Positions 23,517 through 60,179 of a stretch of 64,000 nucleotides of DNA are shown here, piece by piece (position 1 is the stretch's first letter; each line of letters opens with the position of its first letter). A program made the translations under genes and the position numbers. Where the stretch lies: positions 5,120,001 to 5,184,000 of the forward strand of contig OZ243938.1 in assembly GCA_965214095.1 (NCBI GenBank), given 5' to 3'. The notes under the pieces are model-generated. The model saw nothing but the letters and a program-made list of their open reading frames with translations, had not been told where the DNA came from and made no database searches. Source of the DNA: Candidatus Poribacteria bacterium (GTDB lineage: Bacteria > Poribacteria > WGA-4E > WGA-3G).

Positions 23517-24626
23517 ATGGAACTTGCCTTTGAAAAAGATGAACTCCTTGATAACCTACAAACAATCCAAGGCGTAACAAGTGGACGCAACACTTTGCCG
23601 ATACTTGCAAACATTCTCATTCGCGCACAAGATGAGGGAATAGAATGTGCCGCGACCGACTTGGAAGTTGGCATAAAAGTAAAAGTAGACGGGACGATAG
23701 CAGATACAGGTGAAATTACCGTCTCTGCAAAAAAACTCGTTGACCTCGTGCGGGAATTACCTGATAAACCAATTAAACTCGTTACGACTGCAAATGATAG
23801 AATTGAACTCACTTGTGGCGATGGCACATATAAGATAATCGGACTTTCAAGTGAGGAATTTCCACCAGTACCGTCTACTAATGGAGAAGGATTAACTATT
23901 GATGGTGAAATGCTAAACTCCGTTATCCGAAAAACTATTTTTGCAGCATCTACTGAAGAGGTACAATTCCTTCTGAACGGTCTCTATTTCAACCTACTTG
24001 AAGATAGAACAGAGGTGGTCGCAACCGATAGAAACTATCTGGCATTAGCACATTGTGCCCCACTGCAGACATCTGAAGACGTTGAAGGGTTTATAGTGCC
24101 TTTGAAAGCAGTTAAAGAGATTGAACGCACGTTTGCTGATTCAGAAAGTGTGAGGATCTCTCTCCAGAATAGCCAACTGCTGTTCTCTGATGAAAATGCG
24201 ACGCTGATGACACGATTAGTAGATGGGAGATATCCTGAATACCAAACGATTATCCCGGAGTCTACAGAAAGCCGTGCTGTTGTATCAAAGGACTCATTTC
24301 TGCGCGCATCGCGCCGCGTGTCCCTTCTTTCCAATCCAAAGAACAATGCAATATGTTTAGAGATAGATAGTGAAAGAATTCATCTATCTGCAAATACTCC
24401 TGAACTTGGTGAAGCACACGAGACGATTGCAGTGGAATCCAGTACTGGAAGTGTGCGGATAGGACTGGATGCTCGGATGTTAACAGATGTGTTGTCGCAT
24501 ATTGAAACGACATCTCTCGTTTTAGAGTTCTCAGATGATGCCTCACCCTTCTTAGTCAAACCTGAAGGAGATGACGGACATCTATGTATCATTTCACCGA
24601 TGCGATTAGATGCAATCCACCAATAG
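23517..24626 (+). CDS. dnaN: DNA polymerase III beta sliding clamp, paralog 2
   Basis: TLPILANILI, ATDLEVGI, EEFPPVP, RLVDGRYPEY, ISPMRL. AGGAG RBS. Confidence 0.92.
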   Translation: MELAFEKDELLDNLQTIQGVTSGRNTLPILANILIRAQDEGIECAATDLEVGIKVKVDGTIADTGEITVSAKKLVDLVRELPDKPIKLVTTANDRIELTCGDGTYKIIGLSSEEFPPVPSTNGEGLTIDGEMLNSVIRKTIFAASTEEVQFLLNGLYFNLLEDRTEVVATDRNYLALAHCAPLQTSEDVEGFIVPLKAVKEIERTFADSESVRISLQNSQLLFSDENATLMTRLVDGRYPEYQTIIPESTESRAVVSKDSFLRASRRVSLLSNPKNNAICLEIDSERIHLSANTPELGEAHETIAVESSTGSVRIGLDARMLTDVLSHIETTSLVLEFSDDASPFLVKPEGDDGHLCIISPMRLDAIHQ

Positions 24627-24649
24627 AATATGCTGATGTTTACATCATT

Positions 24650-24821
24650 CATAGACGTCAATTTAGCGTCCTTCCAAGTACCGGTAGGTTCGGTTTCCTA
24701 ACCGAACCGGCTTTGTGCCAAATACCTTCATAGAGGTTCTCGCGTAGGATCCGGTTCGGTTAGGAAACCGAACCTACCGTCCTGGGGAAAACGCCTAATT
24801 TACACTAAATTGACGCTTATG
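24650..24821. mobile_element. 172-bp CAT-ended MITE with 20-bp target site duplication
   Basis: TIR CATAGACGTCAATTTAG/CTAAATTGACGCTTATG. ATGCTGATGTTTACATCATT occurs at both 24630-24649 and 24822-24841. Internal inverted REP doublet. Confidence 0.85.
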
Positions 24822-24842
24822 ATGCTGATGTTTACATCATTA

Positions 24843-24941
24843 TAGTGAATTATAGATATAAGTTGACACTTTCGACCCACGGTAGGCGAGGTTTCCTAAC
24901 CTCGCCGATGCTGAGTGCTCAAGTAATTTCAAAATCTACTA
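24843..24941. mobile_element. 99-bp TA-flanked MITE (copy of 6210-6308)
   Basis: Near-identical to 6210-6308. Confidence 0.75.
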
Positions 24942-25085
24942 TAATATCAAATCTACTTTAGCTGCCTGATGTAATACAGTCAAATGTCCACATCCATCCC
25001 GCATATACAAAAAGAGTTTGAATCTGGTAAATTTGTTGTTAAGTTTGTCTTATACAAATTCTATTTGTTCTTATCTCATTTTTTC

Positions 25086-25165
25086 GTAGGTCGGGTAGAG
25101 GCACGAAACCCGACATGATGACTACAATCAAGACGTGTCGGGTTTCGTGCCTCTACCCGACCTAC
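25086..25165. repeat. Perfect inverted REP doublet (REPIN-like) between convergent genes
   Basis: 30-bp GTAGGTCGGGTAGAGGCACGAAACCCGACA and its exact reverse complement, separated by 20 bp. Confidence 0.85.
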
Positions 25166-25198
25166 AGAAGAATGAGGTATTATTAATTAGAAATGGTA

Positions 25199-44179: not shown

Positions 44180-45343
44180 ATGGACACTAACGATACACCA
44201 ACTGCGGAAACCTATCGTGCAAACGCATTTGCAGATTTCAATCCAGAACATTCAGCACCGGGTGCAACACCAGAACGATTAGAACACTTGAAGGAACACG
44301 GGTTTGTCATTATCAATGACTTTGTTGACAACCCTTGGATTCCGAAACTACGGGAGGCAGGACGGCGTGTCACCGAAGCATGTGCACCTGAAAACAAATA
44401 TGATGTAATTGACTGCTCAAAAGGGTATGTCCATCGGACAGGACAAGAACAACCGTGGGCAATTCGCGGGATTATACATCCTGCTTTTGAAGAACCCAGC
44501 TTTAATGAATTTCACGGTTCTACTGATTTCTTAGATTTTGTCGCATCTTGGTGTGATGGACTTCAACCGGAAGACCTTACGTTTAGAGGCACGCTACTAT
44601 GGGCAAATCCACGCACACACGAGAATAAACTCGGTTGGCACAGAGATGTAACGTGGTGGGGAACAGGAAAAGCATACTTCGCACAACGTGAAGTGCGAGG
44701 GGACGGACCTGAAGCATATTCTGAAGAGGTTGAGAGGATCCGTTGGAAAGAAATTCAGGAAAATAACGCTAAGAACCTCAAAGAACGTAATGGCGTGAGT
44801 ATGTTTTTGGCTTTGGCTGATGACGAATGTCATGAGCTTGTTCCCGGCAGTCATGACCGATGGAGAACTCCGTTTGAACATGATGTGCTGCTGCCGAAAA
44901 ACATGAAAGATGCAGGTATACCGTATACACCCAGTTGGAATGGCAGTGACCCATTACCCAGTCAAGTAGCAATTCGCCTAAAGGCAGGGGAAGCATTGAT
45001 TCGAAACGGAGCAACAATACATACGGGACATACCGTTCCTGAACGCGAACGCAATACCTTGTCTATCGGATGGTCAAAATGGTCAGGAGAATCTGAAGAC
45101 GAACCTTCAGTGACAGATGTACGGCATGCATGGCAACTTGATCCAGCAGTCAGAGAATCATTGCCACACAAATGGATGCAGACTGCATGGGACCGCTGGG
45201 CAGCAACCCAAAAACTCGGTGATACACTTGAAGATCGTTATACAGGTTATGACATCAATCACATTAAATCTGGCATGGTACTCGGTTGGCGGGGAGAACT
45301 GGAACAGCAAGCAGCTGCAGCTGCGACTGAGGACTCTGAATAA
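44180..45343 (+). CDS. Phytanoyl-CoA dioxygenase-like Fe(II)/2OG dioxygenase
   Basis: LKEHGFVII, WHRD, LVPGSH, LKAGEALI......H. AGGAGG RBS. Confidence 0.78.
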   Translation: MDTNDTPTAETYRANAFADFNPEHSAPGATPERLEHLKEHGFVIINDFVDNPWIPKLREAGRRVTEACAPENKYDVIDCSKGYVHRTGQEQPWAIRGIIHPAFEEPSFNEFHGSTDFLDFVASWCDGLQPEDLTFRGTLLWANPRTHENKLGWHRDVTWWGTGKAYFAQREVRGDGPEAYSEEVERIRWKEIQENNAKNLKERNGVSMFLALADDECHELVPGSHDRWRTPFEHDVLLPKNMKDAGIPYTPSWNGSDPLPSQVAIRLKAGEALIRNGATIHTGHTVPERERNTLSIGWSKWSGESEDEPSVTDVRHAWQLDPAVRESLPHKWMQTAWDRWAATQKLGDTLEDRYTGYDINHIKSGMVLGWRGELEQQAAAAATEDSE

Positions 45344-45375
45344 TACCATCACATTCGTCTGAAGGGAACGATATT

Positions 45376-45605
45376 CATAGATGTCAATTTAGCGTCCTTC
45401 CCGTGCCGGTAGGTTCGGTTTCCTAACCGAACCATGGGCGTCAATTTAGCGTCCTTCCAAGTGCCGGTAGGTTCGGTTTCCTAACCGAACCGGGTTTGCG
45501 TCAAACTCTTTGATAGAGGGTTCCCGCGGCAGATCCGGTTCGGTTTCCTAACCGAACCTACCGGTCTGGGATTATAGCGAAATTCCCCTCAAATTGATGC
45601 CTATG
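45376..45605. mobile_element. CAT-ended MITE, self-nested (two left ends at 45376 and 45433, one right end)
   Basis: CATAGATGTCAATTTAG and CATGGGCGTCAATTTAG; right end AAATTGATGCCTATG. The second left end directly follows GTTCGGTTTCCTAACCGAAC. Confidence 0.75.
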
Positions 45606-45627
45606 GGACAAAAACGATATAAACTCA

Positions 45628-46725
45628 TCACTTTATCACTGGGACTTTACGCCATCCTTGTCCCTGTGTGAACTCTCGCACACTCAAACACCATATCACA
45701 ACTCGTTTTCCTTTCATATTATCGCGCCTACGAAACAGATTCAATCGTGATGGTGTTGCGCCAGAACCACGAACCGCTACTACATCAGCAGAAAATCCGA
45801 GTTGATGTGCAAGATGGTCTGGTAAACCTGACGATTGCGCATGCATGTCTCCACCCAGATGAAAAACAAGATTATGGCTGTCTCCTAATAGAACAATTGG
45901 ACTCTCACGCCATGATGTGCCGAACGGTTTAGTATCTGCAATTGATTTAGCATCCTCTTTGACATAACTCAGTTGTAATTGTTCCTTTGGCATTTCCTTA
46001 TGACCGAGTTCTTTCCAAAGATCTCCTGTGATTTCAATAGTTCGTGTTTCAATTGTCCCTTTACGTTTTGGAATTGCGTCAATCCAAGACGGTTTTCCTA
46101 TCCTTTTCGCAATCGCCTTCGCTGCAAGAACACACGCAAAGCTTGACCAGTGCGTATCCTGCTTGCAAAATAGATCACCAGCATCGGTGTAACGATTCTG
46201 AAGAAAAAGATCGGTTAGATCCAATACGTTTACACCATGTTCCCGTAAAATGTCATAGAAATCAATATGATGTTTGTCAGTGCGTATCGTCTTACTATAA
46301 TCAGAAATCAACTCAGGATAAATGGTAGCCTTTGCAGGAATCGGAACGAAAATCAAATCTATCCCAACAGTATCCAATTGTGCTTTAAAATCAAGAATTG
46401 CTGGGAGTGGATCCGCATACTCAAGATTTGATGCTTGACTAACATCCTTCGCAGCGTCTCCCCAAAATTGTCCAACAAGTAAATGTCGTAACTCAGGAAT
46501 AAAAAACAACCAGTCCTGCTTACCTGTTACCACTGAAGTGTTTTGTTCCTGTGCGTGATTCACTTTTTCAGTTAACGATTGCCAAAATATATCATGTCCA
46601 ACTAATTCGGTTTCACATTCAATCAATTCGCATGTGAACAGAAAAAGTGAAAGAATCAACATCAGCAATCTACTTGCATTTGAAATTATCACGGTAATTC
46701 TCCCCAAAAGAGATCCAATAACCAT
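45628..46725 (-). CDS. AlgX/AlgJ-type SGNH O-acetyltransferase
   Basis: GKQDWLFF, PIPAKATIYPE, KQDTHWS (DxH), LLGDSH. Start uncertain (possibly 46662). Confidence 0.82.
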   Translation of the reverse strand: MVIGSLLGRITVIISNASRLLMLILSLFLFTCELIECETELVGHDIFWQSLTEKVNHAQEQNTSVVTGKQDWLFFIPELRHLLVGQFWGDAAKDVSQASNLEYADPLPAILDFKAQLDTVGIDLIFVPIPAKATIYPELISDYSKTIRTDKHHIDFYDILREHGVNVLDLTDLFLQNRYTDAGDLFCKQDTHWSSFACVLAAKAIAKRIGKPSWIDAIPKRKGTIETRTIEITGDLWKELGHKEMPKEQLQLSYVKEDAKSIADTKPFGTSWRESPIVLLGDSHNLVFHLGGDMHAQSSGLPDHLAHQLGFSADVVAVRGSGATPSRLNLFRRRDNMKGKRVVIWCLSVREFTQGQGWRKVPVIK

Positions 46726-48263
46726 GTCTCTTCATTCTCCAATTCTATACGATTGTAGCTTTCGTATTCAGTTTGTACGGATGCCCAAGATCGCAGTCGT
46801 AACTCCACCCGCTGTCCGATTTTAAGGGATGTCGCTTCTGTCCATCTATTCTTACGCATACCCCACATAAACACAATCAGTTCATCTGGAAGTTCAGACG
46901 TATCTGAAGGTTCAATATGAAGAGCAATTAGACATTCAGTATATGGCACACTACCCGGAGAAGGCGGATCTGTTTTGTCTTTGATAGTAGCATTCACGAT
47001 GATCTCATTGTTAACCTCGGTCGTTTCTACCTGTTTACCCTCTGGTTTCGAATGTATTTCAGGGATCTGTAGTAGTTTCCAGTCACCTGAGAATAGTTCA
47101 CGCGCCGCAAATTGATATACGACCACACGTTTCCCCATGAGACGTTCCGGTTCCTTTACAAGCGTTTGCCGAGTTGTGAGTGAACCACCATCATTGACGA
47201 CAATCTTATCTACCGGACGGGAAAGTTCTGCACTGAGATGTTCAACGAAACCGGCTGATTTACCCCATCCCATCTCCGCAAGTGAATAGATATTACTGAA
47301 ACTATCACCGAGAAAAAGTATCTCTGCATTACGATCTGGTTTCCATGTTTCACCTGACTGAGTCTGGATTACATGTGTTGTGACATGCTCCTTTGGAAAC
47401 AATGCTTGGTTCTTACGAAGATTCAGCATTTTAGCGATGTCACCTATATTTATGACTTCAGTTGCCGTTTTGGTGTAAATAGCGTTAGGGTTATTGACGA
47501 ATTCCACATTTTCGGATATGAAAGCTGCAAGCTGTTTTGCCACATCTTCCATTGTTTCTGGCTTCCAATGCGTATCTGTTCTAAGATACTGAGCATTCTG
47601 TTGAGAAGCATCAAAAATATATGATGTTGGGTCATATACCAGAATATCATGAGAAGAGAGATTTGCAACTATTTCCGAATATGCTGGATTATAGATAGGT
47701 GAAGACAAGTTTTGGAATCGTTCAGAAAACTTATCTGAGTGGATAGAAGGTTTAACAGGTGTGGGCATTACAATCAGTTTGATGTTGCGTTCTGCTAACT
47801 GCCGTTTAAAATCTACAATCGCTTCAACTGCATTACCAGAGGAAGTTGTTTTGTCAGGCAAATTAAAATTAGTACTAATATTCGCTATTAGTGAGTCAAT
47901 ATCAGCACGGTAGAACAACCAACCATCACGACCTACATAAGCCTGTTCATTTCCTGTTCGAAATAGACTCGTCAAGAATGTCTGAACATTGGGTAACAAC
48001 CAATTCGTAAGTACGGATTCATTTTCTAATGTATCCTCAAATTCTTGAAAGGATTCACGTTTTAGATCAGAAATTACCCCGACTGTGCGAAAAACCTGTG
48101 GTAACTTACCCCGACTAATTTCGGATACAATCTGACAGAAAGGCACTGAAAGCAGCACAACACCAAAGACTATTAGTACAAATATGCACACGTCTCTCTT
48201 CACATTCGTGCTGCCAAGGTCTTTTATGGCTGTTTCTCTGCGGTGTTCTGCTAAGTTTCGCAT
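46689..48263 (-). CDS. AlgJ-type SGNH O-acetyltransferase with extra C-terminal domain
   Basis: N-terminal TM, GRDGWLFY, PTPVKPSI, RTDTHW, FLGDSFS, VVYQFAAREL. Confidence 0.82.
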   Translation of the reverse strand: MRNLAEHRRETAIKDLGSTNVKRDVCIFVLIVFGVVLLSVPFCQIVSEISRGKLPQVFRTVGVISDLKRESFQEFEDTLENESVLTNWLLPNVQTFLTSLFRTGNEQAYVGRDGWLFYRADIDSLIANISTNFNLPDKTTSSGNAVEAIVDFKRQLAERNIKLIVMPTPVKPSIHSDKFSERFQNLSSPIYNPAYSEIVANLSSHDILVYDPTSYIFDASQQNAQYLRTDTHWKPETMEDVAKQLAAFISENVEFVNNPNAIYTKTATEVINIGDIAKMLNLRKNQALFPKEHVTTHVIQTQSGETWKPDRNAEILFLGDSFSNIYSLAEMGWGKSAGFVEHLSAELSRPVDKIVVNDGGSLTTRQTLVKEPERLMGKRVVVYQFAARELFSGDWKLLQIPEIHSKPEGKQVETTEVNNEIIVNATIKDKTDPPSPGSVPYTECLIALHIEPSDTSELPDELIVFMWGMRKNRWTEATSLKIGQRVELRLRSWASVQTEYESYNRIELENEETWLLDLFWGELP

Positions 48264-48265
48264 AT

Positions 48266-49669
48266 CTAAAATATGAAATAGATGAACGGATTATAAGCTT
48301 GTGTTGACATAATTGCAAGAGAGATTAACAATAGTAGGATACACACACCCATTCGGATAGGAGTTAATCGTTGTGTCCAATCCCACGTCTGTGGAAAACA
48401 CCATACGACAATTCCTGCGATACACATTGTCAAAATGTAATAAGGTTGATATATTATTCCAGCAATCAGATTCGTAGATGCATGTATATTAGCACTGCTA
48501 AACATACATTTCAAGAAGTTAAGCACATGCGGAATATCACTACACCTGAAAAAAACCCAAGTGATAAGGACAAGCAGGAATGTCAGTCCAATTCGTAATT
48601 GTCTTGGTAGCGATTCATAGTAGCTTGACTTCCCTCGATTTCTTTCTATTGCAAGCATCCCACCATGAATTCCACCCCAGATGACAAAATTCCATGAAGC
48701 ACCGTGCCATAATCCCCCAAACAACATTACAAGTGCTAAGTTGATATAAGTTCGCCTACTACCCAGACGGTTTCCGCCAAGTGGAATATAGAGATAGTCG
48801 CGTAACCAACTTGATAGTGAAATGTGCCATGTCCGCCAAAAGTCTGTAATAGATTCTGAACGATAAGGAGAATCAAAGTTCTTAGGAAACGTAAACCCCA
48901 ACATCAACCCTAATCCTATCGCCATGTCAGAATAACCGCTGAAGTCAAAATAAATTTGAAAGGCGTAGGCGATTGTTCCATACCACGCATCAAGTGTGCT
49001 GACCACCCCTGCGTCAAACACTGTGTCCGCACATTTACCACAAGGGTTGGCTAACAATATCTTCTTTGCCATACCCAGCGAGAAGAATGCAATCCCGCGT
49101 GCAAACTTTTCTAATGTGTGCGTTCTTTGTTTGAGTTGATCCGAGATTTCTGAAAAACGGATTATAGGACCAGCAACAAGTTGCGGGAACATTGACACAT
49201 AGCAAGCAAAATCAATGAAATTGCGAATCGGCTTTGCATCACTACGATACACATCTATCGTATAACTCATCGACTGGAAGGTGTAGAAACTGATACCGAG
49301 AGGCAGTGTGACTTGAAGAACGGTTTCCCATATCGGCATTCCTAACCAATCCAGAAGTGTGTTAAAGTTGGATATGCCAAAGTTGAAATACTTGAAAAAA
49401 CCTAATAGTGATAGATTTGAACAGATAGAAATTATTAGGGCAACTTTTCGATTACGGTGATTTTCGCTGCCAGAGATGACACGGCCACATGAATAGTCAA
49501 CCACCGTTGAGGCAAACATCAACAACACAAATGGTGGATTTGCCCAACCGTAGAATAGATAACTTAGGAGTGTGAGTCCAAAATGTTTCGCTTTACGTGG
49601 CAGTAGGAAATAACTAAGTAATGCAATCGGAAGGAAATAGTAGACGAAGATATGAGAACTAAAAACCAT
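48266..49669 (-). CDS. algI: MBOAT family O-acyltransferase (AlgI/DltB/PatA type)
   Basis: MVFSS, LPLGISFYTFQSMSY, FPQLVAGPIIR, QIYFDFSGYSDMAIG, FWRTWHISLS.W.RDYLYIPLGGNR, GLWHGASW, PFIYFIF. Confidence 0.92.
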   Translation of the reverse strand: MVFSSHIFVYYFLPIALLSYFLLPRKAKHFGLTLLSYLFYGWANPPFVLLMFASTVVDYSCGRVISGSENHRNRKVALIISICSNLSLLGFFKYFNFGISNFNTLLDWLGMPIWETVLQVTLPLGISFYTFQSMSYTIDVYRSDAKPIRNFIDFACYVSMFPQLVAGPIIRFSEISDQLKQRTHTLEKFARGIAFFSLGMAKKILLANPCGKCADTVFDAGVVSTLDAWYGTIAYAFQIYFDFSGYSDMAIGLGLMLGFTFPKNFDSPYRSESITDFWRTWHISLSSWLRDYLYIPLGGNRLGSRRTYINLALVMLFGGLWHGASWNFVIWGGIHGGMLAIERNRGKSSYYESLPRQLRIGLTFLLVLITWVFFRCSDIPHVLNFLKCMFSSANIHASTNLIAGIIYQPYYILTMCIAGIVVWCFPQTWDWTQRLTPIRMGVCILLLLISLAIMSTQAYNPFIYFIF

Positions 49670-49693
49670 AGCAAATTCTGTTGTAGATTATCA

Positions 49694-51397
49694 TCACTTA
49701 CGACGTTTTTTAGTATTAAGTAGCCTAACTTTTTCAAGTTCTTGTGTCAACTTTGTTGCACCGTGCGCGTTCAGATGGTCAAGGTCTTTGAACATTTCAG
49801 ATGTAAAATCGTGGTTTCCACCCTTGATAAAGTCAACGAAAACAAGATTGGGAAATCGTTTCTCTAAGTTTCGTAATTCTTTAACCAATTCACGATACCC
49901 TTTCTGTGTTGTGCCATCATCATCCACAACTGCTTCTCCCCGCATGATAGGATGGAAAGGGGACAGATATAGCAACACCTGAATGTCACGTTCCTTTAAT
50001 GAAGTAATCATCGCTTTAAGTCGGTTCCACCTTTTTTCAGATATTTCCCATTCTTCATCAAAATCGTCCTTTTCAGGATCTTGCCAGACTTCGTTTTTAT
50101 ATTCCCAACCCCATGGACGTTCAGACCAATACACACCCACATAAGGGATAGCAGAGATTTCATCTGTTGTCTTTTTCTTATCATTGTCATCGGATGGTCT
50201 CCAGAGAGTTTTAGCATGTTTCTGATCAAATTCAAACCCATCGCTTCTTCGCAACACTCTATCGGAAGATTTTTCAAAATGGCGATTAACCACACGCGGG
50301 GACATCTGATAAACCACCCACTCTAAGTTAGGAAGTTTCAACAGATATTCATCTACAACAAGTTTCTGTACCTCTAATGAACCCCCTGAAATCGCGAGAT
50401 TGTATGCGACAGGCGTCTTTTGATTTTCCTTACCGTAGAATAAACCGGTCCTTACTCCACATTCACAACGTGAGTCCCCCAAAGCAACAAGTTTGAGTTG
50501 ACCCTTCAATTGCCAAAAGACAGGCATCTTTTCGGAGAGAATGGAATCGTAATCAAACCTATCATCTATAGAACGGTCTTCAAGTATTTTTTGTCCAAAA
50601 TCGTGATAGAGTGGTATGTCCAAGTCTAACTCAAGTGTATCACTTGTATAAATACTTTCAAGTTCTTTGAATTGTTGATATGGATAAAGTTCTAATGTCC
50701 GTGAAGTTCCAATTTTGGCTTCCCCAATTGATTGCGGTTGGTTATCATATATTGCCCAATGTGCAACACGAAGTTTCTTTCCTTTGAACTCACCATCAAG
50801 CCGTTTCTTGAGTTTATATTCATAAAATACGAGTGCTTCCCGATATGGAGATATATCATCAAGAGTCGGCAGTTTAGATTTCGCAACTAACTCTACTCTA
50901 AGTTCAATAGGATCACTCATGTCTATATCTATCAAAGTGCCATCTTGTGCAATCTCAAGTTCGATCTCTACACCCATATTGTCAACTTCAATATCAAAAA
51001 AATCGGTTTTGCCAAGTTCTGATTTCCGTTCTATATCGTCAATTTCCAAGGTTCCAACGTGCCGACGAACTGTATCTTGAACAGGTTTGGGAAGTTCAGA
51101 AAAAGAAATTTCCTCAGTTATATCTCTCTGCTTGAATGTGCCATCTTCCATAATCTCTAATTCAATTCTAATTCTATCATTTTCCGCTTCTACATCATAT
51201 TCAATCTCACCGTCATCTTCATCTCTGTCAATATCGTCGATTGGAACGTCCCCGATTTCTTTCAGGACGATTTTCTGTATGGATTTTGGTAGCTCATCAA
51301 ATTCTATGTCTTCAGAAAATCCATAGTAACTGATGAAAACGAAGCATAGTAAAATACAAAATAGTCGTTGTTTTGTATGGAAACGATTTTTCATCAT
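49694..51397 (-). CDS. Secreted protein: acidic PepSY/BLIP-like repeats, middle domain and SGNH-like domain
   Basis: Two repeats of ELPK.(I/V)Q..V...(I/V)G...IDDI(D/E)R......(Y/F)D(V/I)E; ALGDSR; FKDLDHLN.HGA. Confidence 0.65.
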   Translation of the reverse strand: MMKNRFHTKQRLFCILLCFVFISYYGFSEDIEFDELPKSIQKIVLKEIGDVPIDDIDRDEDDGEIEYDVEAENDRIRIELEIMEDGTFKQRDITEEISFSELPKPVQDTVRRHVGTLEIDDIERKSELGKTDFFDIEVDNMGVEIELEIAQDGTLIDIDMSDPIELRVELVAKSKLPTLDDISPYREALVFYEYKLKKRLDGEFKGKKLRVAHWAIYDNQPQSIGEAKIGTSRTLELYPYQQFKELESIYTSDTLELDLDIPLYHDFGQKILEDRSIDDRFDYDSILSEKMPVFWQLKGQLKLVALGDSRCECGVRTGLFYGKENQKTPVAYNLAISGGSLEVQKLVVDEYLLKLPNLEWVVYQMSPRVVNRHFEKSSDRVLRRSDGFEFDQKHAKTLWRPSDDNDKKKTTDEISAIPYVGVYWSERPWGWEYKNEVWQDPEKDDFDEEWEISEKRWNRLKAMITSLKERDIQVLLYLSPFHPIMRGEAVVDDDGTTQKGYRELVKELRNLEKRFPNLVFVDFIKGGNHDFTSEMFKDLDHLNAHGATKLTQELEKVRLLNTKKRRK

Positions 51398-51416
51398 AAC
51401 GAAATTCCTATGATTG

Positions 51417-52574
51417 TTATAGTTCCTTTCTCAAAATCACTATACGATTGCTGTTCGTGCCTTTGTTGTTGTTAGCAACACCCCAACAATTTGCTGTTTT
51501 CGTGAAATCCTGGGTGTTAATCATCAATTTTTCAGGTATAAATCCTGCATCAAGAGAGGCTTTTGCAACAGCATTTTCTAAGAATATTTCACCTTTACGT
51601 ACCTCTCCCACTTCAAAAGCAATTCTACCAGATGGTTTTAGTACGCGATGTAACTCAACAAATACATCTGTCATCCGTGCAACCCAATCATCAAGTGACT
51701 TTAATTGCCAGATTTTACCTGCTTCTATTGTTATATCACAAAACCACATTCGTAACCAGTTGTCCTGTTTATAGTCAACAGTATCAAGAAATGGAGGAGA
51801 GGTTACAACTAAATCAACAGATTCGTCAACAATCTGAGGTGTATCATCAGCGGATCCTGTTATGAGAACTGCATCATCACGCCAATAATAATCAGGGATG
51901 TCGTGTCGTAACAACTGTTTTGATTTACGTAGTATCAATTCTTTTGTGTTGCGGTATTCTGGGATCTGATTGCGTTTTTCGTTTATTTTCCGTTGCGAGT
52001 TTACTGATGCCGCAAGATTCGGAGGCAGTGTAAAAACAGAGAAGAAACCCGAGGAATGTCCTGTGAGACGACTACATGCGACCATTTGTAACCACGCATC
52101 TATTCTATCAAACCGTCCCTGTTGAAAATATGTTCGCCAACCATAGATTTCTCTGAGTGTATCTTCGTGAAAAAAGACTAATAAATCAGGGTCAATTTCT
52201 TCATCATAAGATAGGTCTATCTCAGACAACCTTTCCTCAATTTCCGCTAAAGCCGGTGGATTGAGTCGTGGAGATGTCAGAACTAATGAAAGTGGGTTAA
52301 TATCATTTCCGATGACTTTATGTCCGTGGAGTTGTGCCTCTATTAAGGTCGTTCCGCGTCCCATAAAGGGATCGTAAACGACAGATTCAGATTTACAAAA
52401 CTTTTGGATAAAATGTGCGGGGAGTTGTGGTTTGTAGCAGGCGCGGTATGAGATTTCATGAATTGAATGTCCAGCACGTTGTTTTGCTGTCCAAAATTCG
52501 CCTATCTCAGTAGGGACATAGACAGAATAACTATTGGGACGATTGAAGTCAAAGGCTAATTGTACTGAAGGCAT
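51417..52574 (-). CDS. Orphan DNA methyltransferase (N4-C/N6-A)
   Basis: Motif I YDPFMGRGTT precedes motif IV LVVTSPPF; RVLKPSG. No nuclease gene adjacent. Confidence 0.85.
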   Translation of the reverse strand: MPSVQLAFDFNRPNSYSVYVPTEIGEFWTAKQRAGHSIHEISYRACYKPQLPAHFIQKFCKSESVVYDPFMGRGTTLIEAQLHGHKVIGNDINPLSLVLTSPRLNPPALAEIEERLSEIDLSYDEEIDPDLLVFFHEDTLREIYGWRTYFQQGRFDRIDAWLQMVACSRLTGHSSGFFSVFTLPPNLAASVNSQRKINEKRNQIPEYRNTKELILRKSKQLLRHDIPDYYWRDDAVLITGSADDTPQIVDESVDLVVTSPPFLDTVDYKQDNWLRMWFCDITIEAGKIWQLKSLDDWVARMTDVFVELHRVLKPSGRIAFEVGEVRKGEIFLENAVAKASLDAGFIPEKLMINTQDFTKTANCWGVANNNKGTNSNRIVILRKEL

Positions 52575-52680
52575 GGAATAAAACCAATATACAGGTTATT
52601 CTAAAGATTCTCATAAGTGGTCAGTCGGTAGGAGCGATCTCCAAATCGCGAACTAAAATAAAATGTTGACTAAGCACTAG

Positions 52681-52803
52681 TGTTCTGTCTACACTAATCT
52701 TGTCCGTCGGGTAGAGGCACGAAACCCGACAGGCAGCCATTTATCATCAATAAAGGCGGGGGCGTGCCTCTACCCGACCTACAATGTCCGAATGGACACA
52801 GCA
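52681..52803. mobile_element. NTAN-type MITE with REP doublet
   Basis: TGTTCTGTC...GACACAGCA flanked by CTAG on both sides. Confidence 0.75.
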
Positions 52804-52838
52804 CTAGAATACATATTGAAATTATATCTTTTGAGAAC

Positions 52839-54407
52839 TCAATCTGATAGAAGGGATTCAATCATACAAATTAACGGTTGTCCGTTCACGATATGCGATC
52901 CCTTGAACGTGTATTGCCAATACCCGTTTTTATCAATTAAAATAAAATGCGGGATGGCTCTGACGTTATATGCCTCAGCAAATTCCCAATCTGGATCAAG
53001 CAAAACAGGCCAAGGCGGGTTATGTTCATCTAAAGACTTCTGCACTTGCTCAGGCTTTTCACCATTATTAACTCCCAAAAAGACGAAATCTTTGCTCATG
53101 CTAAAATGCTCGTAGACGAGTTTGAGTTGAGGAACTACCAAGTTGCACGGTCCACACCACGATGCACTTACATCAAGCAATACTACTTTTCCAGACATAT
53201 CTGATAAAGTGTATGATTCACCATCCAGCGTTTCTAAACGAAAATCCTCTGCCTTCTCATTTATTCTTTTCGACAGCACTTGTTGACAGATATGTATACG
53301 GTCCGCTTCTTTTCGGATTTCGTATTCTGCTTCGGTGTCTTTGAGAAATGCCTCAAAGGTTGTCTTGGGATTTCTTTTCTTTATCTGTTGATAGACGCGT
53401 TTTAAACCTGATTGCGCATCAGGATGGGGAGTAGGGGCAAAATGTGCATCCACATAGTAGTACTTTGCTTTTTCCCATTGTTCAATACCTTCTGCAGATC
53501 GTCCAAGCATATAAAGATAGTCTATCGTTTCCTCGCCAAACCTTGCCCAAAATGAATCCAGAAAATCCGGTGCGTACTCGTTGAGGTGATCATGTGCTTC
53601 GCGCCACTTTTCTTGATGGTAGTAAACTTTCCCACGTAAGCGCGAGATCTCTTCGTAAGCATATTCTAAGCTTCCCTTTTTCCTTTCAAGCCATTCTTGT
53701 TCTTCCTTCTCTTCTAATCTTATTTCAGCACGATCTAAAGTTTTCAATGCTTTATCTAATCGGTTGCTAAGCTTAATTCGATATTTTACTGCGTTCGTAT
53801 ATGCCCATATGTGCTTTTGCTGAGTCTCGTTACAATAATATAGATGTGCATTCATGAGATCATCAATCAGTTCATCAATGTAGACACCGTCTGCAAGAGA
53901 ACGATTCTTCTCTACTAACCGCAGCATGTTTTCATAAGCCAGCATATACCAAGTAGTTGGACCATCTGTAATAGTACATTCATTGATGACACGTTCGTTA
54001 TAGTGCCACTGCTGATCTTCGTCTTCATTCAGTTCTGCTAACTCTAATAGTGCTGCCAGATATGTGTCGGTTCCTGGGTAATTTAACATCTTGTTAAATA
54101 TCTCTTTTGGAACATTCTTGGCACGGCCAGGAAGACGTGTATATCCCATATAGACAGTGAAATATAAATCCGATGATTCTGGGTGTGTTTGTAATACCAT
54201 TTCGATTTCGGGATAGATTCGCTCTTTCGCTTCTGTTTCTGAAAACATTTCGGTCATTAGTTCCCAGCGTGTATTGTAAGCCTTCAAATCCGGTGGATTG
54301 GATTCTAAGACCTGTTCGCTGATTTCTAATGCCTTGTCAAATTCACGTGACCTGGACAGGTCATTAATCTGTTCCGATAAACTCTGTTGTTCTTTATTTT
54401 CTAACAT
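52839..54407 (-). CDS. TPR-like helical domain + TlpA/redoxin (thioredoxin-fold) protein
   Basis: C-terminal DFRLETLDG...GKVVLLDVSASWCGPC...IPHFILIDKNG. GAGGAG RBS. Confidence 0.85.
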   Translation of the reverse strand: MLENKEQQSLSEQINDLSRSREFDKALEISEQVLESNPPDLKAYNTRWELMTEMFSETEAKERIYPEIEMVLQTHPESSDLYFTVYMGYTRLPGRAKNVPKEIFNKMLNYPGTDTYLAALLELAELNEDEDQQWHYNERVINECTITDGPTTWYMLAYENMLRLVEKNRSLADGVYIDELIDDLMNAHLYYCNETQQKHIWAYTNAVKYRIKLSNRLDKALKTLDRAEIRLEEKEEQEWLERKKGSLEYAYEEISRLRGKVYYHQEKWREAHDHLNEYAPDFLDSFWARFGEETIDYLYMLGRSAEGIEQWEKAKYYYVDAHFAPTPHPDAQSGLKRVYQQIKKRNPKTTFEAFLKDTEAEYEIRKEADRIHICQQVLSKRINEKAEDFRLETLDGESYTLSDMSGKVVLLDVSASWCGPCNLVVPQLKLVYEHFSMSKDFVFLGVNNGEKPEQVQKSLDEHNPPWPVLLDPDWEFAEAYNVRAIPHFILIDKNGYWQYTFKGSHIVNGQPLICMIESLLSD

Positions 54408-54840
54408 ATATCTCCTCAATTAGTTCGCAGCCAGTAAATTGCGAATTTCTGTCATTGAGTTTAATCGCTAAATTAGGAAAGTTTCCTTTATTGATACAAG
54501 ATATCATTTTTTCTCAAATGGGAAACTCTCAAATTTGTCAATTAAGAGAAATTAATGCTTTTTCTTATACAAGTCAGAAAAGAAATGATAAATAGAATAA
54601 GTCAATATTGCTTTGATTCAAAAAGCGTAAGCTGCTTGGAAAAAGTTGGATGAGGTAGTCCTGTTTGTCCGTTCCCCTAAATTGCTTCTAAGTTCTCAAG
54701 GCATGAATAATCCTTGAAGAATCGGGTGATGTCATCTGCTTTCCTCTGTTCTGCCAGTTTCTCTTGAAGGTGGATCAATACGCAGTCGGTTAAAAACACG
54801 AGGTGTTTGTTTTTTTAGAAACGTAAACCAAACTCTCCAA

Positions 54841-55335
54841 CTAAACAGTATAATGCTTAGCAATATCATCGTCCAGATTTTCTAAAATATCTTTGGCATC
54901 ACGTTTCGGTGTTTTTTCCTTTTTCACTTCTGCTTCAAGAAATCCGTTTTCTTCAATAACCTTTTCATCAACATATATTGGCACTTCACATCGGACTGCA
55001 AGCGCAATAGCATCACTAGGTCGTGAATCTAATTCGAATTTCTCTCCGTTCAATTCAAGGGTCACCTCTGCGTAAAATGTAGAATCTTCAATAGAAGTGA
55101 TACAAACAGAATCCACCTGAGCGGAAAATGTCTCAATCACGTTCTTGAGCAGATCGTGTGTGATGGGACGTGGTGGAGGTGTCTGTTTCAGTTGGTTTTC
55201 TATCGCCCACGCTTCGGATTCTCCGATCCATATCAGCAATATCCGTTTAGATTCCCCTTCTCTTTCTTTCAACACAACAAGGGGAGTGCGAGTGTTTCGA
55301 TCAATTGTTAGAAATTCAATATTTACTTCAACCAT
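54841..55335 (-). CDS. Bifunctional nuclease family protein (DUF151), copy 2
   Basis: LLIWIGESEA, PPRPITHDLL, TFYA, DSRPSDAIALA. GAGGAG RBS; ATG overlaps the end of the upstream gene. Confidence 0.9.
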   Translation of the reverse strand: MVEVNIEFLTIDRNTRTPLVVLKEREGESKRILLIWIGESEAWAIENQLKQTPPPRPITHDLLKNVIETFSAQVDSVCITSIEDSTFYAEVTLELNGEKFELDSRPSDAIALAVRCEVPIYVDEKVIEENGFLEAEVKKEKTPKRDAKDILENLDDDIAKHYTV

Positions 55336-55747
55336 CTTTTTTCTCCTCTTCAAGGAAACCGTGTTCTTCTAAAACACCTTCATCTACAAAGATTGGGGCA
55401 TTAAATCGTATTGCAACAGCAATTGCGTCACTGGGACGCGAATCTATGGCAATTTCTTGTGTACCTGTTTTAAGACTCAACTTCGCATAAAAGGTTGACT
55501 TCTCAATTTTGGTGATATAGACCGCATTAACGGTTGTCGAAAGTGCATCTATGATATTCTTGATAAGATCGTGAGTCAATGGACGTGGAGGAGACATTTC
55601 ATCCAAATATGATTTTATTGCGTTTGCCTCCGCTTCTCCGACCCAAATCAATAACCTTCGTATAGGAGCACCTTCTTTCTGTTTTAGAATGACGACTGGT
55701 GTTCCATTATTGTTTGTGGAGATATAATCTGCTTTTACTTCAACCAT
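55328..55747 (-). CDS. Bifunctional nuclease family protein (DUF151), copy 1
   Basis: LLIWVGEAEA, PPRPLTHDLI, TFYA, DSRPSDAIAVA. Confidence 0.9.
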   Translation of the reverse strand: MVEVKADYISTNNNGTPVVILKQKEGAPIRRLLIWVGEAEANAIKSYLDEMSPPRPLTHDLIKNIIDALSTTVNAVYITKIEKSTFYAKLSLKTGTQEIAIDSRPSDAIAVAIRFNAPIFVDEGVLEEHGFLEEEKKDG

Positions 55748-55792
55748 TGGGATACTCCATTGTTCAAAATATCTTCGGTTTAATGTGTATTA

Positions 55793-56090
55793 TAGTAAAA
55801 ACCAAAATTATTTGCATAGTACTGTTCTGTCTACACTAATCTTGTCCGAATGGACACTCCACTACGGTAGGTTCGGTTTCCTAACCGAACCGGCTTTGTG
55901 CCAAATACCTTCATAGAGGTTCTCGCACAGGTTCCGTGCAGTTAGGAAACCGAACCTACCGGCCTGGGAAAACGCCTAATTTACACTAAATTGACGCCTA
56001 TGGTTCGGTTTCCTAACCGAACCGGTATTTGTTCAGTCTCATAGATGCGGTTAGGAAACCCCATCTACCGGGGGGTGTGCACGTATTTTA
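55793..56090. mobile_element. Composite of three nested MITE families
   Basis: TA-type shell containing a REP-less NTAN element (55823-55861) and the body and right end (to 56002) of the CAT-ended element, followed by GTTCGGTTTCCTAACCGAAC. Confidence 0.72.
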
Positions 56091-56111
56091 CATTAGTTGA
56101 AGCTGCAAATT

Positions 56112-57980
56112 TTATTCAGAAGTAGGCTCGGATTCAGAAGTAGGCTCGGATTCAGAAACTGTTACTGAATTCTGATTAAGACCTTTAGCATAATCCTGAA
56201 TCGTCTGTCCAATTTTTGCAGTATCCAGACCGCTGAAGTTAACGAGTTCTTTCAAGAGTGGCATTGCAGCTCCAGCATTGATTATAGAACCGAGGATGCG
56301 ACTCATTCCACCTGAATTACCATTACCACCATTTCCACCTAAATCAAGTACACGGATACTTTCAATACGTTCTGCAGGTTTCATCAACTCACCCGTAACT
56401 TCAGGTAATGCCTCAACAAGTGCATGCACTGCATCACTGACAAGCACCTGTGGTTCAGCTTGGTTTTTGGCAGTAATTAAGGCTTCTTCGCCATCAGCCT
56501 CAGCCTTTGCTTCAACAAGCAAAGCCTCAGCAAGTATTTTTGTTGCCTCAGACTTGACTGTCGCTGCCTCCAGTTCCGCTTTTGCTGTTTCAACGATGGT
56601 GTATGCCTCAGCATCAGCCATCTTCTCCTTAGCAATTCTTTCTTCGTCTGCTTCTTGTTCTGCACGAATCAGTTCAATTTTGCTTTCGCGTTCAGCCTTT
56701 TCTATTGCTTCAGCAGTTTCAACGGCGGCTTCAGCGCGGGCTTTTTCTGCAGAAACCGATAACAGATCGATAAGGGCAATCTCACGTTCTTTCTCTTTCA
56801 ATGAAACAAGAATAGCGTTTTCTGCCTCAGCTTCTTTTTCTGCACGTTCCTTATCAATCAATACAATTCTACGTTCAATTTCTGTTTCTTTGACTGTAGC
56901 CTCTTGTTCAATCTTAGCTTTTTCAATAGTGAGGTTACGCTGGATTTCTGCTTCCTCAACCGCTTGCAGTTGTTGTACTTTTGCAAGCTCAACTGCTTGC
57001 TTTTGAGAGATTTCACTTTCTTCAACCTGACGTTCCTGTTCAATCCGTTCCATCTCTATTTTTTGAGTTTGCGCAATTTCAGCAGATTTTATAGCCTGTT
57101 CTTGCATAATTCGTGCTTCTTCAACCGCCTGGAGTTGTTCAAACTTATGTGCTTCAACCTGACGTTCCTGTTCCGCCTTGTTAGTAGCAATTTCCTTACG
57201 TTGTGCTTCTTGGGCGAATTCAAGTCGTTGCTCTACCTCTAAACCTTCGGTCTCTGTTTCTTCTTCACGCATCTTGATCTCAAGTTCAGCTTTGAGACGG
57301 TCTTCTTCACGTTTAACTTTATTTTCGTGTTCTATCTTAGCGGTTGCAGTCTGTTTCTCTTCAACTTCCTGCTTGATCGTCTGAATTGCGACAACATCAA
57401 AACGGTTGTTTTCATCAAGTGAATCAAGTGGGGTTTGATCAAGGTTGGTAATAGCAACAGTTTCAAGTTTGAAACCGTTCTGCTCAAGATCTTCAAGGCA
57501 TGCTTCTTGAACTTGATCAGAGAATTCTTGTCGTTTTTCATGGAGTTCCTGAAGTTCCATGGTCGCGGCAACACTTCGTAAAACACCTACAAGTTTACCT
57601 TCCAGCAACGTATTCACTGCTTCTGGAGTCAAGGTTTTATCTCCAAGACTTGCAACTGCTTTAAGCACATCTTGTTCATTCGGTTCAATTTTAACATAGA
57701 ATTCTGCCTGAATGTCAACACGTAAACTATCCTTTGTAATCAGTGCCGCTTGACCTTCACGTTCAACAGGCAGCTGTAAGGTATTTAGTGAGATAGTTTG
57801 CGTTATGTTTGTTATTGGGTTCACAAGCGTTCCACCAAATACAACACGTTTCTTATTGCCACCTGAAATCACCAACGCGGCATCAGCAGGGGCTTTTTTG
57901 TAGAATGATTTATAGATTAACACAAAGATTACGAATAACGCAATCAGACCACCAACAATGAGGATAAAAAGTTCACTCAT
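56112..57980 (-). CDS. Flotillin/SPFH domain protein (YqiK-like)
   Basis: N-terminal TM, ALITKDSLRVD..AEFYV, LRSVAATM.L.ELHE.R, DL.QNG.KLE.V.IT.LDQT, long EA-rich coiled coil, KPAERIESIRV. Confidence 0.9.
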   Translation of the reverse strand: MSELFILIVGGLIALFVIFVLIYKSFYKKAPADAALVISGGNKKRVVFGGTLVNPITNITQTISLNTLQLPVEREGQAALITKDSLRVDIQAEFYVKIEPNEQDVLKAVASLGDKTLTPEAVNTLLEGKLVGVLRSVAATMELQELHEKRQEFSDQVQEACLEDLEQNGFKLETVAITNLDQTPLDSLDENNRFDVVAIQTIKQEVEEKQTATAKIEHENKVKREEDRLKAELEIKMREEETETEGLEVEQRLEFAQEAQRKEIATNKAEQERQVEAHKFEQLQAVEEARIMQEQAIKSAEIAQTQKIEMERIEQERQVEESEISQKQAVELAKVQQLQAVEEAEIQRNLTIEKAKIEQEATVKETEIERRIVLIDKERAEKEAEAENAILVSLKEKEREIALIDLLSVSAEKARAEAAVETAEAIEKAERESKIELIRAEQEADEERIAKEKMADAEAYTIVETAKAELEAATVKSEATKILAEALLVEAKAEADGEEALITAKNQAEPQVLVSDAVHALVEALPEVTGELMKPAERIESIRVLDLGGNGGNGNSGGMSRILGSIINAGAAMPLLKELVNFSGLDTAKIGQTIQDYAKGLNQNSVTVSESEPTSESEPTSE

Positions 57981-58030
57981 TTCATTTCTCCTTGACTTTT
58001 GTTATCATGTTTATTTTTGGTAATTTGTAT

Positions 58031-58825
58031 TTACTGTAGTTCCATTTCTACTGGTTTCACATCAAAAATCCGTTTATCAGAATCATAGTTTATAAGAATA
58101 ACGGTATCTCCTTTTACCGGAAACGTTTCATCAGGTTTTACACGACATTTCACTGTCAATGTATCCCCATTAGGGACAACAACACGTGCTGTTCCAAAAG
58201 TAGAAGTAACTTGTCCACTTATCACTCTACCGCGTAAGCCGAGTAGATGCATATCTTTTGTTGCTGGATCACTTTCTGGAAAGATCCTTGAAAGAGTCAA
58301 CGATAGATATCGCGTGCTTAACACACTGCAGACAAAAGCAACTGAACAGGATATGCCAAAGAACAGACTTGTTGTGGAATCAACACGAAGGATATTATTG
58401 ACGATTAACCCGGTGAAACTCCAAGTCGTAAAAAGGGACATTACGACAATCATAAACGGGACCCTGCCAATATTCAAGAAACCTAATACGTCTCCAAAGA
58501 CACTACCAGCTGCACCAGAATCCGTGGTAATTTCGGTATCTGCATCGGCATCAACATCCATATCAACATCAGCGTCAACATCCATGTCAATATCCGCATC
58601 AACATCTAAATCTAAATCAACGTCAACATCCGCATCAACGTCAAAGTCAACATCTGCATCCACATCAAAGTCTGCATCCACATCTGCGTCAACGTCAGCG
58701 TCAGCATCTCCGAAGTCCAATCCACCGAGAACCAGCCGAAAAATGGCAAACAGGAAAACGACAGTAAGTGGTGCAGTAAACCACACATTATAAGGTACTA
58801 CAAGATATTTCCAAAAAGCACCCAT
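58031..58825 (-). CDS. YqiJ/NfeD-like flotillin partner (DUF1449) with Asp-rich low-complexity insert
   Basis: TM, (DAD-V/F/M)n tract, [12 protein letters not shown], two TMs, C-terminal OB-like LLG..G.V......FG.A. Confidence 0.8.
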
Positions 58826-59211
58826 TAGTTATACCTCCCAATCTGTTCGGTGATAAATTGCTGGACATGCATCGCCTCATGAAAACTCATGTTATCTATC
58901 CAGTAAATATTACGTTTGACATATATTTCAAGCCGCGCTTGTCCAAATAACCGATGTTTCAGCAGACGCGCAAGTTTTACAGAACGTATATCACTAAAAA
59001 ACACATTACACCGTATATTTGCATAGGAGACAGCGATATTCCCCATAAACTTTTCATCTAATACGAGGACACGCAGCGATGTGATAAGAACAAAATCTGG
59101 ACGTAACAATGAGGAACGTCCGAGAACACACAGATAGATTTTCTCATCCTGTTGGAGTTCTGCTTTTGCAAGTTGTTGAATACGTGTGGGTAAATTTCCA
59201 AATTCAGCCAT
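58825..59211 (-). CDS. Small bacterial PH-domain-like protein
   Basis: LQQDEKI......LITSLRVLV...FSDIRSV.L....LFG pattern. GAGGA RBS; stop overlaps the next start. Confidence 0.65.
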
Positions 59212-59297
59212 CGTGCATCGTCCTCTTATACTATTGAGACATTGAAATGAGGAAAGATAGCAAGAAATGTCAGATTTGATTGTTGAAAATGTAAATG

Positions 59298-59337
59298 ATA
59301 ACAATAAACACACAATCTCTTGTGTGTTTATTGTTAT
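59298..59337 (-). terminator. Long hairpin immediately 3' of tmRNA
   Basis: 18-bp perfect stem ATAACAATAAACACACAA / TTGTGTGTTTATTGTTAT with a 4-nt loop. Confidence 0.7.
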
Positions 59338-59339
59338 GA

Positions 59340-59690
59340 TGGAGGTGGCGGGAATCGAACCCGCGTCCGAAAGCAGATTGATAAAGGTCTCTACATGCTT
59401 ATCCCAGGTTTTAAGTTTCGCCAGTTAGACTCCCCTGTGCAGGATTCATAAATGACTATCTCAAGTTTAGATTCGCAGGATGTCCCTTGAGAACAACCAA
59501 ACTGCTAGCCTGTATTGTGACGCTTTTACCTCCCTGACAGACAACAAGTCAGCAAAGCGTAGCCGCTTAAGCAGCTAATGCTAATTCTTGATCAGCAATT
59601 ATAATTGTTCCGCCTATTTTACGAGGCCTGCGGAGACCTCGGCATGCAACCCAGATCGCAATTACCTCCGTCGAAACCTGTGTCACCCCC
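59340..59690 (-). ncRNA. ssrA: tmRNA; tag peptide (A)ADQELALAA
   Basis: 5' GGGGGTGAC...TTCGAC and 3' GGGTTCGATTCCCGCCACCTCCA, with G3-U70 alanine identity. Tag frame 59596-59567 GCT GAT CAA GAA TTA GCA TTA GCT GCT TAA. Directly downstream of smpB. Confidence 0.96.
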
Positions 59691-59708
59691 AGAATATATC
59701 TCGTGGGT

Positions 59709-60179
59709 CTATGTATAAGAACGTATTTCACGATCCGCATGATCGCGATCTATTTTTTCACGTTTGTCGTAAAGACGTTTCCCTTGTGCTACTGCTAATT
59801 CTAACTTAACCCGACTACCTGTAAAGTATGCACGGGTTGGAATTAACGTCAAACCTTTGGATTTAACAGCCCGTTCCAGTTTTCTGATCTCGCTACGATG
59901 TAACAGCAGTTTCCGTGGACGTTTCGGTTCATGGTTCATCTGATTACCTTGGTCGTACAAACCGATGTAAGCATCAACCAGAAATACCTCGCCATCTGTT
60001 ATCTGTGCGTAACTATCTGTCAGATTGAACAGCCCGTTCCTTATTGCTTTGACTTCAGTCCCTTGCAAAACGATACCTGCTTCATATCGGTCGCGGAGAT
60101 GATAGTCATACCGTGCTTTCCGATTGACTGTAATTGTTCCGTTCTGCGGGGAATTCTTCTTCTTTTTCACAATAACCAT
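59709..60179 (-). CDS. smpB: SsrA-binding protein
   Basis: NRKARYDY, EAGIVLQGTEVKAIR, NHEPKRPRKLLLH, GLTLIP, GKRLYDKRE. Confidence 0.97.
   Translation of the reverse strand: MVIVKKKKNSPQNGTITVNRKARYDYHLRDRYEAGIVLQGTEVKAIRNGLFNLTDSYAQITDGEVFLVDAYIGLYDQGNQMNHEPKRPRKLLLHRSEIRKLERAVKSKGLTLIPTRAYFTGSRVKLELAVAQGKRLYDKREKIDRDHADREIRSYT

Follow-up and report, generated by a model that had tools for sequence, protein, structure and literature searches.

The 64-kb stretch of Candidatus Poribacteria DNA analysed here (the window; C1:5120001-5184000 of a 5.2-Mb genome) contains a miniature element flanked by exact 20-bp duplications. This locus raises the question of which enzyme moves the element and what that enzyme reads in its targets. 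The initial annotation, made from the window alone, proposed a transposase of no named family that recognises the structure of hairpins rather than their sequence and cuts them with a fixed 20-nt stagger. Our data show that the finding itself is real and that the enzyme class is more ordinary than the annotation supposed.

The 17-nt end used for counts, CATAGGCGTCAATTTAG, has eight matches in the window at no more than 3 mismatches, compared with 0.19 expected from shuffles; none of 100 shuffles reached eight. The copies that carry these ends are listed in Table 1. Two of them, copies 1 and 4, are intact and have the exact 20-bp duplications that were first reported for them. The host of copy 4 also has an empty paralogue in the window, as claimed: alignment of 52676-52812 with 60387-60714 reveals a single 191-bp gap, which corresponds to the 171-bp element plus the 20-bp duplication. 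The 20-mer of this empty site is one base off the copy-4 duplication. A third target had been deduced from two partial copies, one with a left end at 45433 that comes after the REP 20-mer GTTCGGTTTCCTAACCGAAC and the other with a right end at 56002 that precedes it. Both junctions are present, but the copy at 45433 is full length. Its right end has 3 mismatches and it is inserted at the first REP (45413-45432) of the older 57-bp fragment that precedes it. No matching 20-mer was found on its 3′ side, from which we infer a later rearrangement. The copy at 55871-56002 would have arisen by insertion into a REP followed by a REP-REP deletion, and the REP that adjoins its right end is part of a host REP-pair unit.

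Table 1 Features of the MITE copies in the 64-kb window.
Feature	Coordinates	Strand	Details
TSD left, MITE copy 1	24630-24649	.	ATGCTGATGTTTACATCATT, identical to 24822-24841
MITE copy 1, 172 bp	24650-24821	+	Ends 24650-24666 and 24805-24821; 98% identity to copy 4
Cargo REPs, MITE copy 1	24688-24707, 24754-24773		
TSD right, MITE copy 1	24822-24841	.	ATGCTGATGTTTACATCATT
Older MITE copy, 57-bp left-end fragment	45376-45432	+	End, subterminal sequence and first REP
Diverged full-length MITE copy, 173 bp	45433-45605	+	80% identical to copy 4
Empty paralogue of copy-4 host element	52681-52803	+	Single target 20-mer 52715-52734
Partial MITE copy without left end	55871-56002	+	Starts at REP 55871-55890; exact right end 55986-56002
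REP 20-mer adjoining right end	56003-56022	.	GTTCGGTTTCCTAACCGAAC; right copy of duplicated target
TSD left, MITE copy 4	60427-60446	.	AGGCACGAAACCCGACATGC
MITE copy 4, 171 bp	60447-60617	+	Sits within another small repeated element
TSD right, MITE copy 4	60618-60637	.	AGGCACGAAACCCGACATGC

All four MITE sites of the window are intergenic. Copy 1 lies between convergent ORFs ending at 24626 and 25199; an ORF-finder frame on the minus strand (24380-24661) overlaps its first 12 bases, and another on the plus strand (60357-60656) spans copy 4. The 572-bp gap between the convergent genes (24627-25198) is a stack of repeats, in which the MITE is accompanied by a variant REP (~24880-24907) and an inverted pair of a second palindrome family (25085-25165). 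In the closest relative genome (G005), which is 87% identical in the gene flanking the copy-1 site, the orthologous gap is ~90 bp long and contains a single REP; this intergenic region is different and unalignable, and no orthologous empty site for copy 1 was found.

The whole genome contains 183 end-like matches at no more than 3 mismatches and 64 left/right end pairs that lie 100-1600 bp apart. In 41 of the 64 pairs the flanks agree in the 20-nt register with at most 5 mismatches. When the Hamming distance was compared for k = 17-23, k = 20 was lowest in every one of the 41, so that in these pairs the genome-wide tabulation of duplication lengths suggested by the initial annotation shows no wide scatter; two MITEs with exact 19-mers can be read as 20 too. 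A BLAST search with the MITE returned 32 full-length copies (74-100% identity), and its interior, which consists of two inverted REPs ~45 bp apart, is covered ~190 times. Since the MITE and a 1488-bp IS have only the terminal 17-19 nt in common and the interior occurs ~190-fold, the MITE is a frequent REP-pair unit with an IS end on either side. It is 171 bp long, has 32 copies and has the same 17-nt ends and 20-bp duplications as the 1488-bp IS.

The long copy with the same ends, which the annotation had suggested looking for, exists: 13 end pairs are spaced at 1487/1488 bp and represent IS copies. Each of the 13 is flanked by exact 20-bp repeats, and in each the ORF, of 439 or 447 aa, is intact. 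With one of the 13 taken as reference, ten copies lie within 4 nt of it and the remaining two are 26 nt away; judging by this near-identity, the IS appears to have been active recently. Its ends, CATAGGCGTCAATTTAA(G) and CATAGGCGTCAATTTAG(T), fit the IS231-subgroup pattern CAT-------AA--TAA---. The encoded transposase matches Pfam DDE_Tnp_1 (PF01609; 1.9e-22, 80.4 bits with a cut-off of 23) and the NCBIfam IS4-family model NF033592 (195.4 bits, cut-off 115). All 17 relatives compared have D119, D191, R320, E324 and K331, and these residues align with IS231B. The spacers between D119, D191 and E324, of 71 and 132 residues, are within the IS4 ranges D(60-110)D(100-150)E. In the YREK motif, Y(2)R(3)E(6)K, R320, E324 and K331 are kept and the tyrosine position is Ala in the IS; among the relatives it is Val or Leu in some and Tyr in L012, L031 and L067, and Tyr is present in IS231B and in the relatives with 11-bp duplications. 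The Ala is residue 317 (L001:114-1433, minus strand), in an IS that is apparently active. With an AlphaFold model of the transposase (pLDDT 68.9), Foldseek ranks 1-5 were all Tn5 transposase (E 5.7e-9 to 9.8e-8); PDB sequence searches with the transposase and with a 17-sequence profile gave no relevant match. The IS1634 family was considered and rejected, as NF033559 reaches only 28.7 bits with a cut-off of 100. Thus, the transposase that the annotation had left without a family is, as predicted from profile matches and the structural model, an IS4-family DDE enzyme of Tn5-like fold that resembles IS231.

The duplication length departs from this family. According to the accessible text of De Palmenaer et al. 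2008 (PMC2266710), duplications of about one helical turn are among the defining traits of the IS4 family and range from 7 to 13 bp across its subgroups, and the IS231 subgroup combines the ends CAT-------AA--TAA--- with direct repeats of 10-12 bp. The IS described here duplicates 20 bp in 13 of 13 copies, beyond the 7-13 bp of the family and the 10-12 bp of the subgroup, and its transposase belongs to a separate clade with 100/100 support instead of clustering with IS231.

To understand what the transposase reads, we examined the flanks of its ends. The abundant REP of this genome is GTTCGGTT-N4-AACCGAAC, an 8+4+8 palindrome. Among 150 element ends (no more than 2 mismatches), 88 adjoin a REP-like 20-mer and 62 do not. 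Such a strong association, together with a duplication that spans exactly the 8+4+8 palindrome, is what would be expected if the transposase recognised an extruded hairpin or cruciform and cut at the base of its stem, so that the duplication equals stem, loop and stem. The targets that are not REPs argue against this. In the flanks of the 62 non-REP ends, position -20 is G in 48, position -2 is A in 36 and position -1 is C in 51. After de-duplication they represent 37 distinct targets, 29 of which start with G and 29 of which end with C, and their consensus ends have only G(G/T)(G/T)...(C/A)AC in common. The outermost pair is complementary in 27 of the 37, but at positions 2-10 the base is complementary to its mirror-image partner in 3-15 targets, with ~9 expected by chance. 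No fold is predicted for 17 of the 37, and their mean minimum free energy (MFE; -0.88) does not differ from that of 3000 motif-matched controls (-0.62, p=0.25), although it is slightly lower than that of random 20-mers (p=0.019). The check on the folding of reconstructed targets that had been proposed therefore gave no advantage over motif-matched controls. These targets are nevertheless duplicated over ~20 bp. In the window itself, where all three targets had been described as stem-loops, only the REP 20-mer is strong (DNA MFE -7.0 kcal/mol); the other two reach -2.1 and -1.4 kcal/mol. Because the non-REP targets have no folding advantage, a hairpin is not needed and the ~20-bp stagger belongs to the enzyme. 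The claim that structure is recognised rather than sequence thus fails on the 37 non-REP targets.

The REP preference exceeds what this minimal motif can account for. On the plus strand 10,429 sites fit the minimal end motif, whereas 68 of 431 REPs adjoin an element end and 123 more are found inside elements, which amounts to 191 of 431 REPs (44%) next to or inside elements of this MITE/IS family. The use of 68 of 431 REPs against 10,429 motif sites means that more than six end bases are read in the target. Counter-selection of insertions into genes accounts for no more than a part of the REP preference, and the extra preference may have a structural component.

The relatives of the IS bear on the same question. 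The closest homologues of the transposase are in Candidatus Poribacteria MAGs, and we analysed 92 IS copies, with transposases of 47-90% identity, from other Poribacteria genomes. The conserved ends of these copies read CATAGGYGTCAAYTTAA/G. Exact duplications flank 55 of the 92 copies and measure 20 bp in 21, 19 bp in 27, 18 bp in 5 and 17 bp in 2; of the remaining copies, 9 have duplications with 1-2 mismatches, 24 are without a duplication and 4 are without an end pair. In non-REP targets of the relatives the duplications again have a G-rich start and end in AC or CC (for example L007, L020, L028, L080, L104 and L116). Of 20 REP targets with exact duplications, 19 (all but L086) obey one rule, in which the duplication is 16 bp longer than the loop: 3-nt loops give 19 bp (10 targets) and 4-nt loops give 20 bp (9 targets). 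The same is seen for one IS type in one genome (L109-L112), where 4-nt-loop REPs give 20 bp and a 3-nt-loop REP gives 19 bp. The stagger is therefore not rigid, as the annotation had proposed it to be: in the relatives the length ranges over 17-20 bp, and 19 versus 20 bp tracks the 3-nt versus the 4-nt loop.

A transposase that reads structure would predict the same loop-length result. Several observations weigh on the other side. Imperfect REPs with stem mismatches are used as targets, and in the REP family hit by the clades with 55% and 49% identity the stem within the duplication is just a short GGGT/ACCC. Moreover, 8-bp stems rarely extrude as cruciforms, and IS4-family DDE enzymes capture duplex targets. 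Together with the ~20-bp length at the 37 non-REP targets, which have only background complementarity in their interior, these points make cutting at an extruded hairpin unlikely.

Long duplications are not confined to Poribacteria. An IS on a Herpetosiphon aurantiacus plasmid (35% identity) has a 19-bp duplication and one on a Chlorohelix plasmid (34% identity) has a 20-bp duplication. More distant relatives from Clostridiaceae and Prolixibacteraceae (26-30% identity) have 11-bp duplications, including GGGTTAGACCC and GGGTCAGACCC; the flanks of L065 (IS231B) and L068 (Clostridium CF011) gave no clean TSD. In a maximum-likelihood tree of 28 rows, in which the two Chloroflexota rows drew a long-branch warning, the long-duplication ISs form one clade and IS231B falls with the 11-bp relatives in another; the split has 100/100 support. 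Thus, the long (17-20 bp) duplications are a clade trait.

Taken together, we consider it probable that the MITE is moved in trans by an IS231-like IS4 transposase whose insertion sites are set by symmetric half-sites 19-20 bp apart, and that the REP, as the best match to these half-sites, is copied whole. The 1488-bp IS, whose 13 copies lie elsewhere in the genome, would supply the transposase that moves the 171-bp MITE. By analogy with the cut-and-paste transposition of Tn5, Tn10 and IS231A, the enzyme would cut the element out and attach each of its two 3′ ends to a phosphate on a different strand of the target. These phosphates would be ~20 bp apart, compared with 7-13 bp in the described IS4 members, and gap repair would then yield the 20-bp duplication. 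The joining sites may be set by a transpososome that reads the half-sites 5'-G(G/T)(G/T)-N14-(C/A)AC-3', with a spacing that would tolerate about one base either way. Because the REP fits both half-sites best, most of the insertions that are retained straddle the whole 8+4+8 palindrome, the duplication is the whole REP and an intact REP is left on each side. As the MITE has the order REP-spacer-REP between two IS ends, each new copy would bring two more preferred targets, and REP-REP recombination would account for the solo ends.

The initial annotation had suggested that the element spreads its own landing pads, and this suggestion holds: the cargo REPs are the favourite target. Since they are preferred targets, copies are nested, in the window at 45376-45605 and elsewhere at C1:443699 and C1:2355851, where IS copies sit inside MITE REPs, and at C1:2057240-2057414. 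The last of these is an array with a 58-bp period; the region C1:2057070-2057414 starts with one MITE, followed by three extra 58-bp units that each consist of a 38-bp MITE left end and a 20-bp REP. The array looks like the product of repeated insertion or of unequal recombination at the cargo REP. A search for excision footprints in the form of tandem REP 20-mers found none, the 3 tandem hits being unrelated sequence.

Two further explanations do not involve the IS transposase acting on the MITE. It is very improbable that another enzyme mobilises the MITE and that the ends in common with the 1488-bp IS are incidental; the two do have just the terminal 17-19 nt in common, but MITEs commonly resemble their parent IS at the ends alone, and IS and MITE are alike in ends, duplication length and target preference. 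That the flanking 20-mers are not TSDs at all, and that a REP-bounded element was spread by REP recombination or a REP-associated Y1 transposase, is scarcely credible: most flanks are REPs and the genome has five Y1_Tnp genes, yet nine pairs (no more than 2 mismatches), including 3 IS copies, have non-REP flanks that are all unique or low-copy, the empty paralogue has its 20-mer once, and the REP of the MITE family is absent within 1.5 kb of any Y1 gene.

Among named elements, the closest relatives of the transposase are in the IS231 subgroup. Like the IS231 subgroup (IS231A/B, IS186), the Poribacteria IS has a single-ORF DDE transposase with R(3)E(6)K and 5'-CAT ends, and IS231B of B. thuringiensis has the similar ends CATGCCCATCAACTTAAGA. 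The targets also correspond: in the parts of the sources available, IS231A inserts into GGGNNNNNCCC with an 11-bp TSD (PMC2577343), and IS186, filed under IS4/IS231, uses GGGG(N6/N7)CCCC with a variable core (PMC5009759). All are symmetric, G-rich on one side and C-rich on the other, with a slightly variable spacer, and the Poribacteria spacer is about twice as long. Non-autonomous derivatives that have only the ends in common are found in both cases, since the MIC231 cassettes are non-autonomous IS231 derivatives (cited in the accessible text of PMC2266710). The differences are equally clear. The Poribacteria transposase is only 27-28% identical to the IS231 copies in Bacillus plasmids and forms its separate 100/100 clade; the clade of Poribacteria and Chloroflexota duplicates 17-20 bp and not 10-12 bp; its hosts are Poribacteria and Chloroflexota and not the Bacillus cereus group; and the YREK tyrosine is not kept.

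Duplications much longer than one helical turn are also made by the IS1202 group and by casposons. IS1549/IS1634 resembles the present IS in this respect, but its duplications, given as 8-514 bp in the accessible text of PMC2266710, are variable between copies, whereas the Poribacteria length is sharply defined. Specific insertion into REPs is shared with the REP-targeting ISs (IS1397, ISKpn1, ISPsy8, ISPpu9/10, ISPa11, ISRm22 and ISRm19). As far as the available part of PMC1525189 describes them, these belong to five families including IS4 (ISRm22), have repeats of 0-6 bp and split the REP, whereas in the Poribacteria IS and MITE the duplication takes in the complete 20-bp palindrome core, so that both flanks retain an unbroken REP; in addition, the Poribacteria IS has a MITE with the REP as cargo. 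The MITE interior of two inverted REPs ~45 bp apart resembles BIMEs and REP pairs, but unlike these the unit is bracketed by IS ends in 32 full-length copies and transposes with 20-bp duplications.

In the literature searched, outside ISfinder and the subgroup direct-repeat lists of PMC2266710, we found no IS4-family element with 17-20 bp duplications, no study of ISs or REPs in Poribacteria, and no description of a REP that is straddled and duplicated by an IS or of a MITE that exports REP pairs. No IS name is attached to the homologues listed or to six NCBI/ENA protein clusters. The IS and its relatives are apparently an undescribed long-stagger clade of the IS4 family. More tentatively, and with rather more doubt, this may be an unnamed IS4 subgroup, first described here, that has multiplied in Poribacteria, also occurs on Chloroflexota plasmids and joins at sites 17-20 bp apart (about two helical turns) on the outermost base pairs of the REP stem, so that a whole REP would be copied with every insertion; its REP-pair MITEs may then represent a self-seeding, RAYT-independent form of REP/BIME proliferation, possibly with structural target choice.

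The well-supported sister clade of IS231 that duplicates 17-20 bp shows that, in a single transposase lineage, the two active sites can come to lie about twice as far apart on the target, and the clade offers a natural system for studying what sets the stagger length in Tn5-type transpososomes. Since 191 of the 431 REPs of the family lie at or in elements, mobile elements may contribute materially to REP numbers in these sponge symbionts. The MITE and IS copies also break short-read Poribacteria assemblies at every copy. We compared four public runs, as Logan contigs, with window positions 44500-62000; the long pieces listed stop beside repeats (45428, 52651/52722, 55849, 56031, 60299/60300 and 61351). 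None of the Logan joints listed corresponds to the 191-bp block, and the comparison is uninformative on presence/absence polymorphism.

Several further observations concern the genome and its repeats. The Y1_Tnp (IS200/RAYT-like) genes are located at C1:81623, 2170036, 2385609, 4230081 and 2666075, and four of them are 141 aa long. A RAYT-driven REP system was considered and rejected, as the GTTCGGTT...AACCGAAC REP, the one REP family tested, occurs in none of the 1.5-kb flanks of the five genes. Contig C2 (32,066 bp) has a G+C content of 64%, compared with 41% on the main contig, and could be foreign or a contaminant introduced by binning. Among the relatives (L005-L045 and L080-L130), the 24 of 92 IS copies with unlike flanks are often bordered by a REP on one side and by its inverted form or a different variant on the other; such flanks suggest frequent recombination or inversion between copies.

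The small repeated element that hosts copy 4 is ~125 bp long and is found in the window at 60387-60714, 52676-52812, 55816-55866 and 25085-25170. It starts with TGTTCTGTCTACACTAATCTTGTCCG and carries another palindrome family, GTCGGGTAGAGGCACGAAACCCGAC. Its core, GGGTAGAGGCACGAAACC, recurs in another Poribacteria genome, where it flanks an IS (L031, 49% identical) as an exact 18-bp duplication, and the duplication of L041 is the same core with one base changed. Because this core recurs as the duplication of L031, different IS lineages seem to be matched to different REP families.
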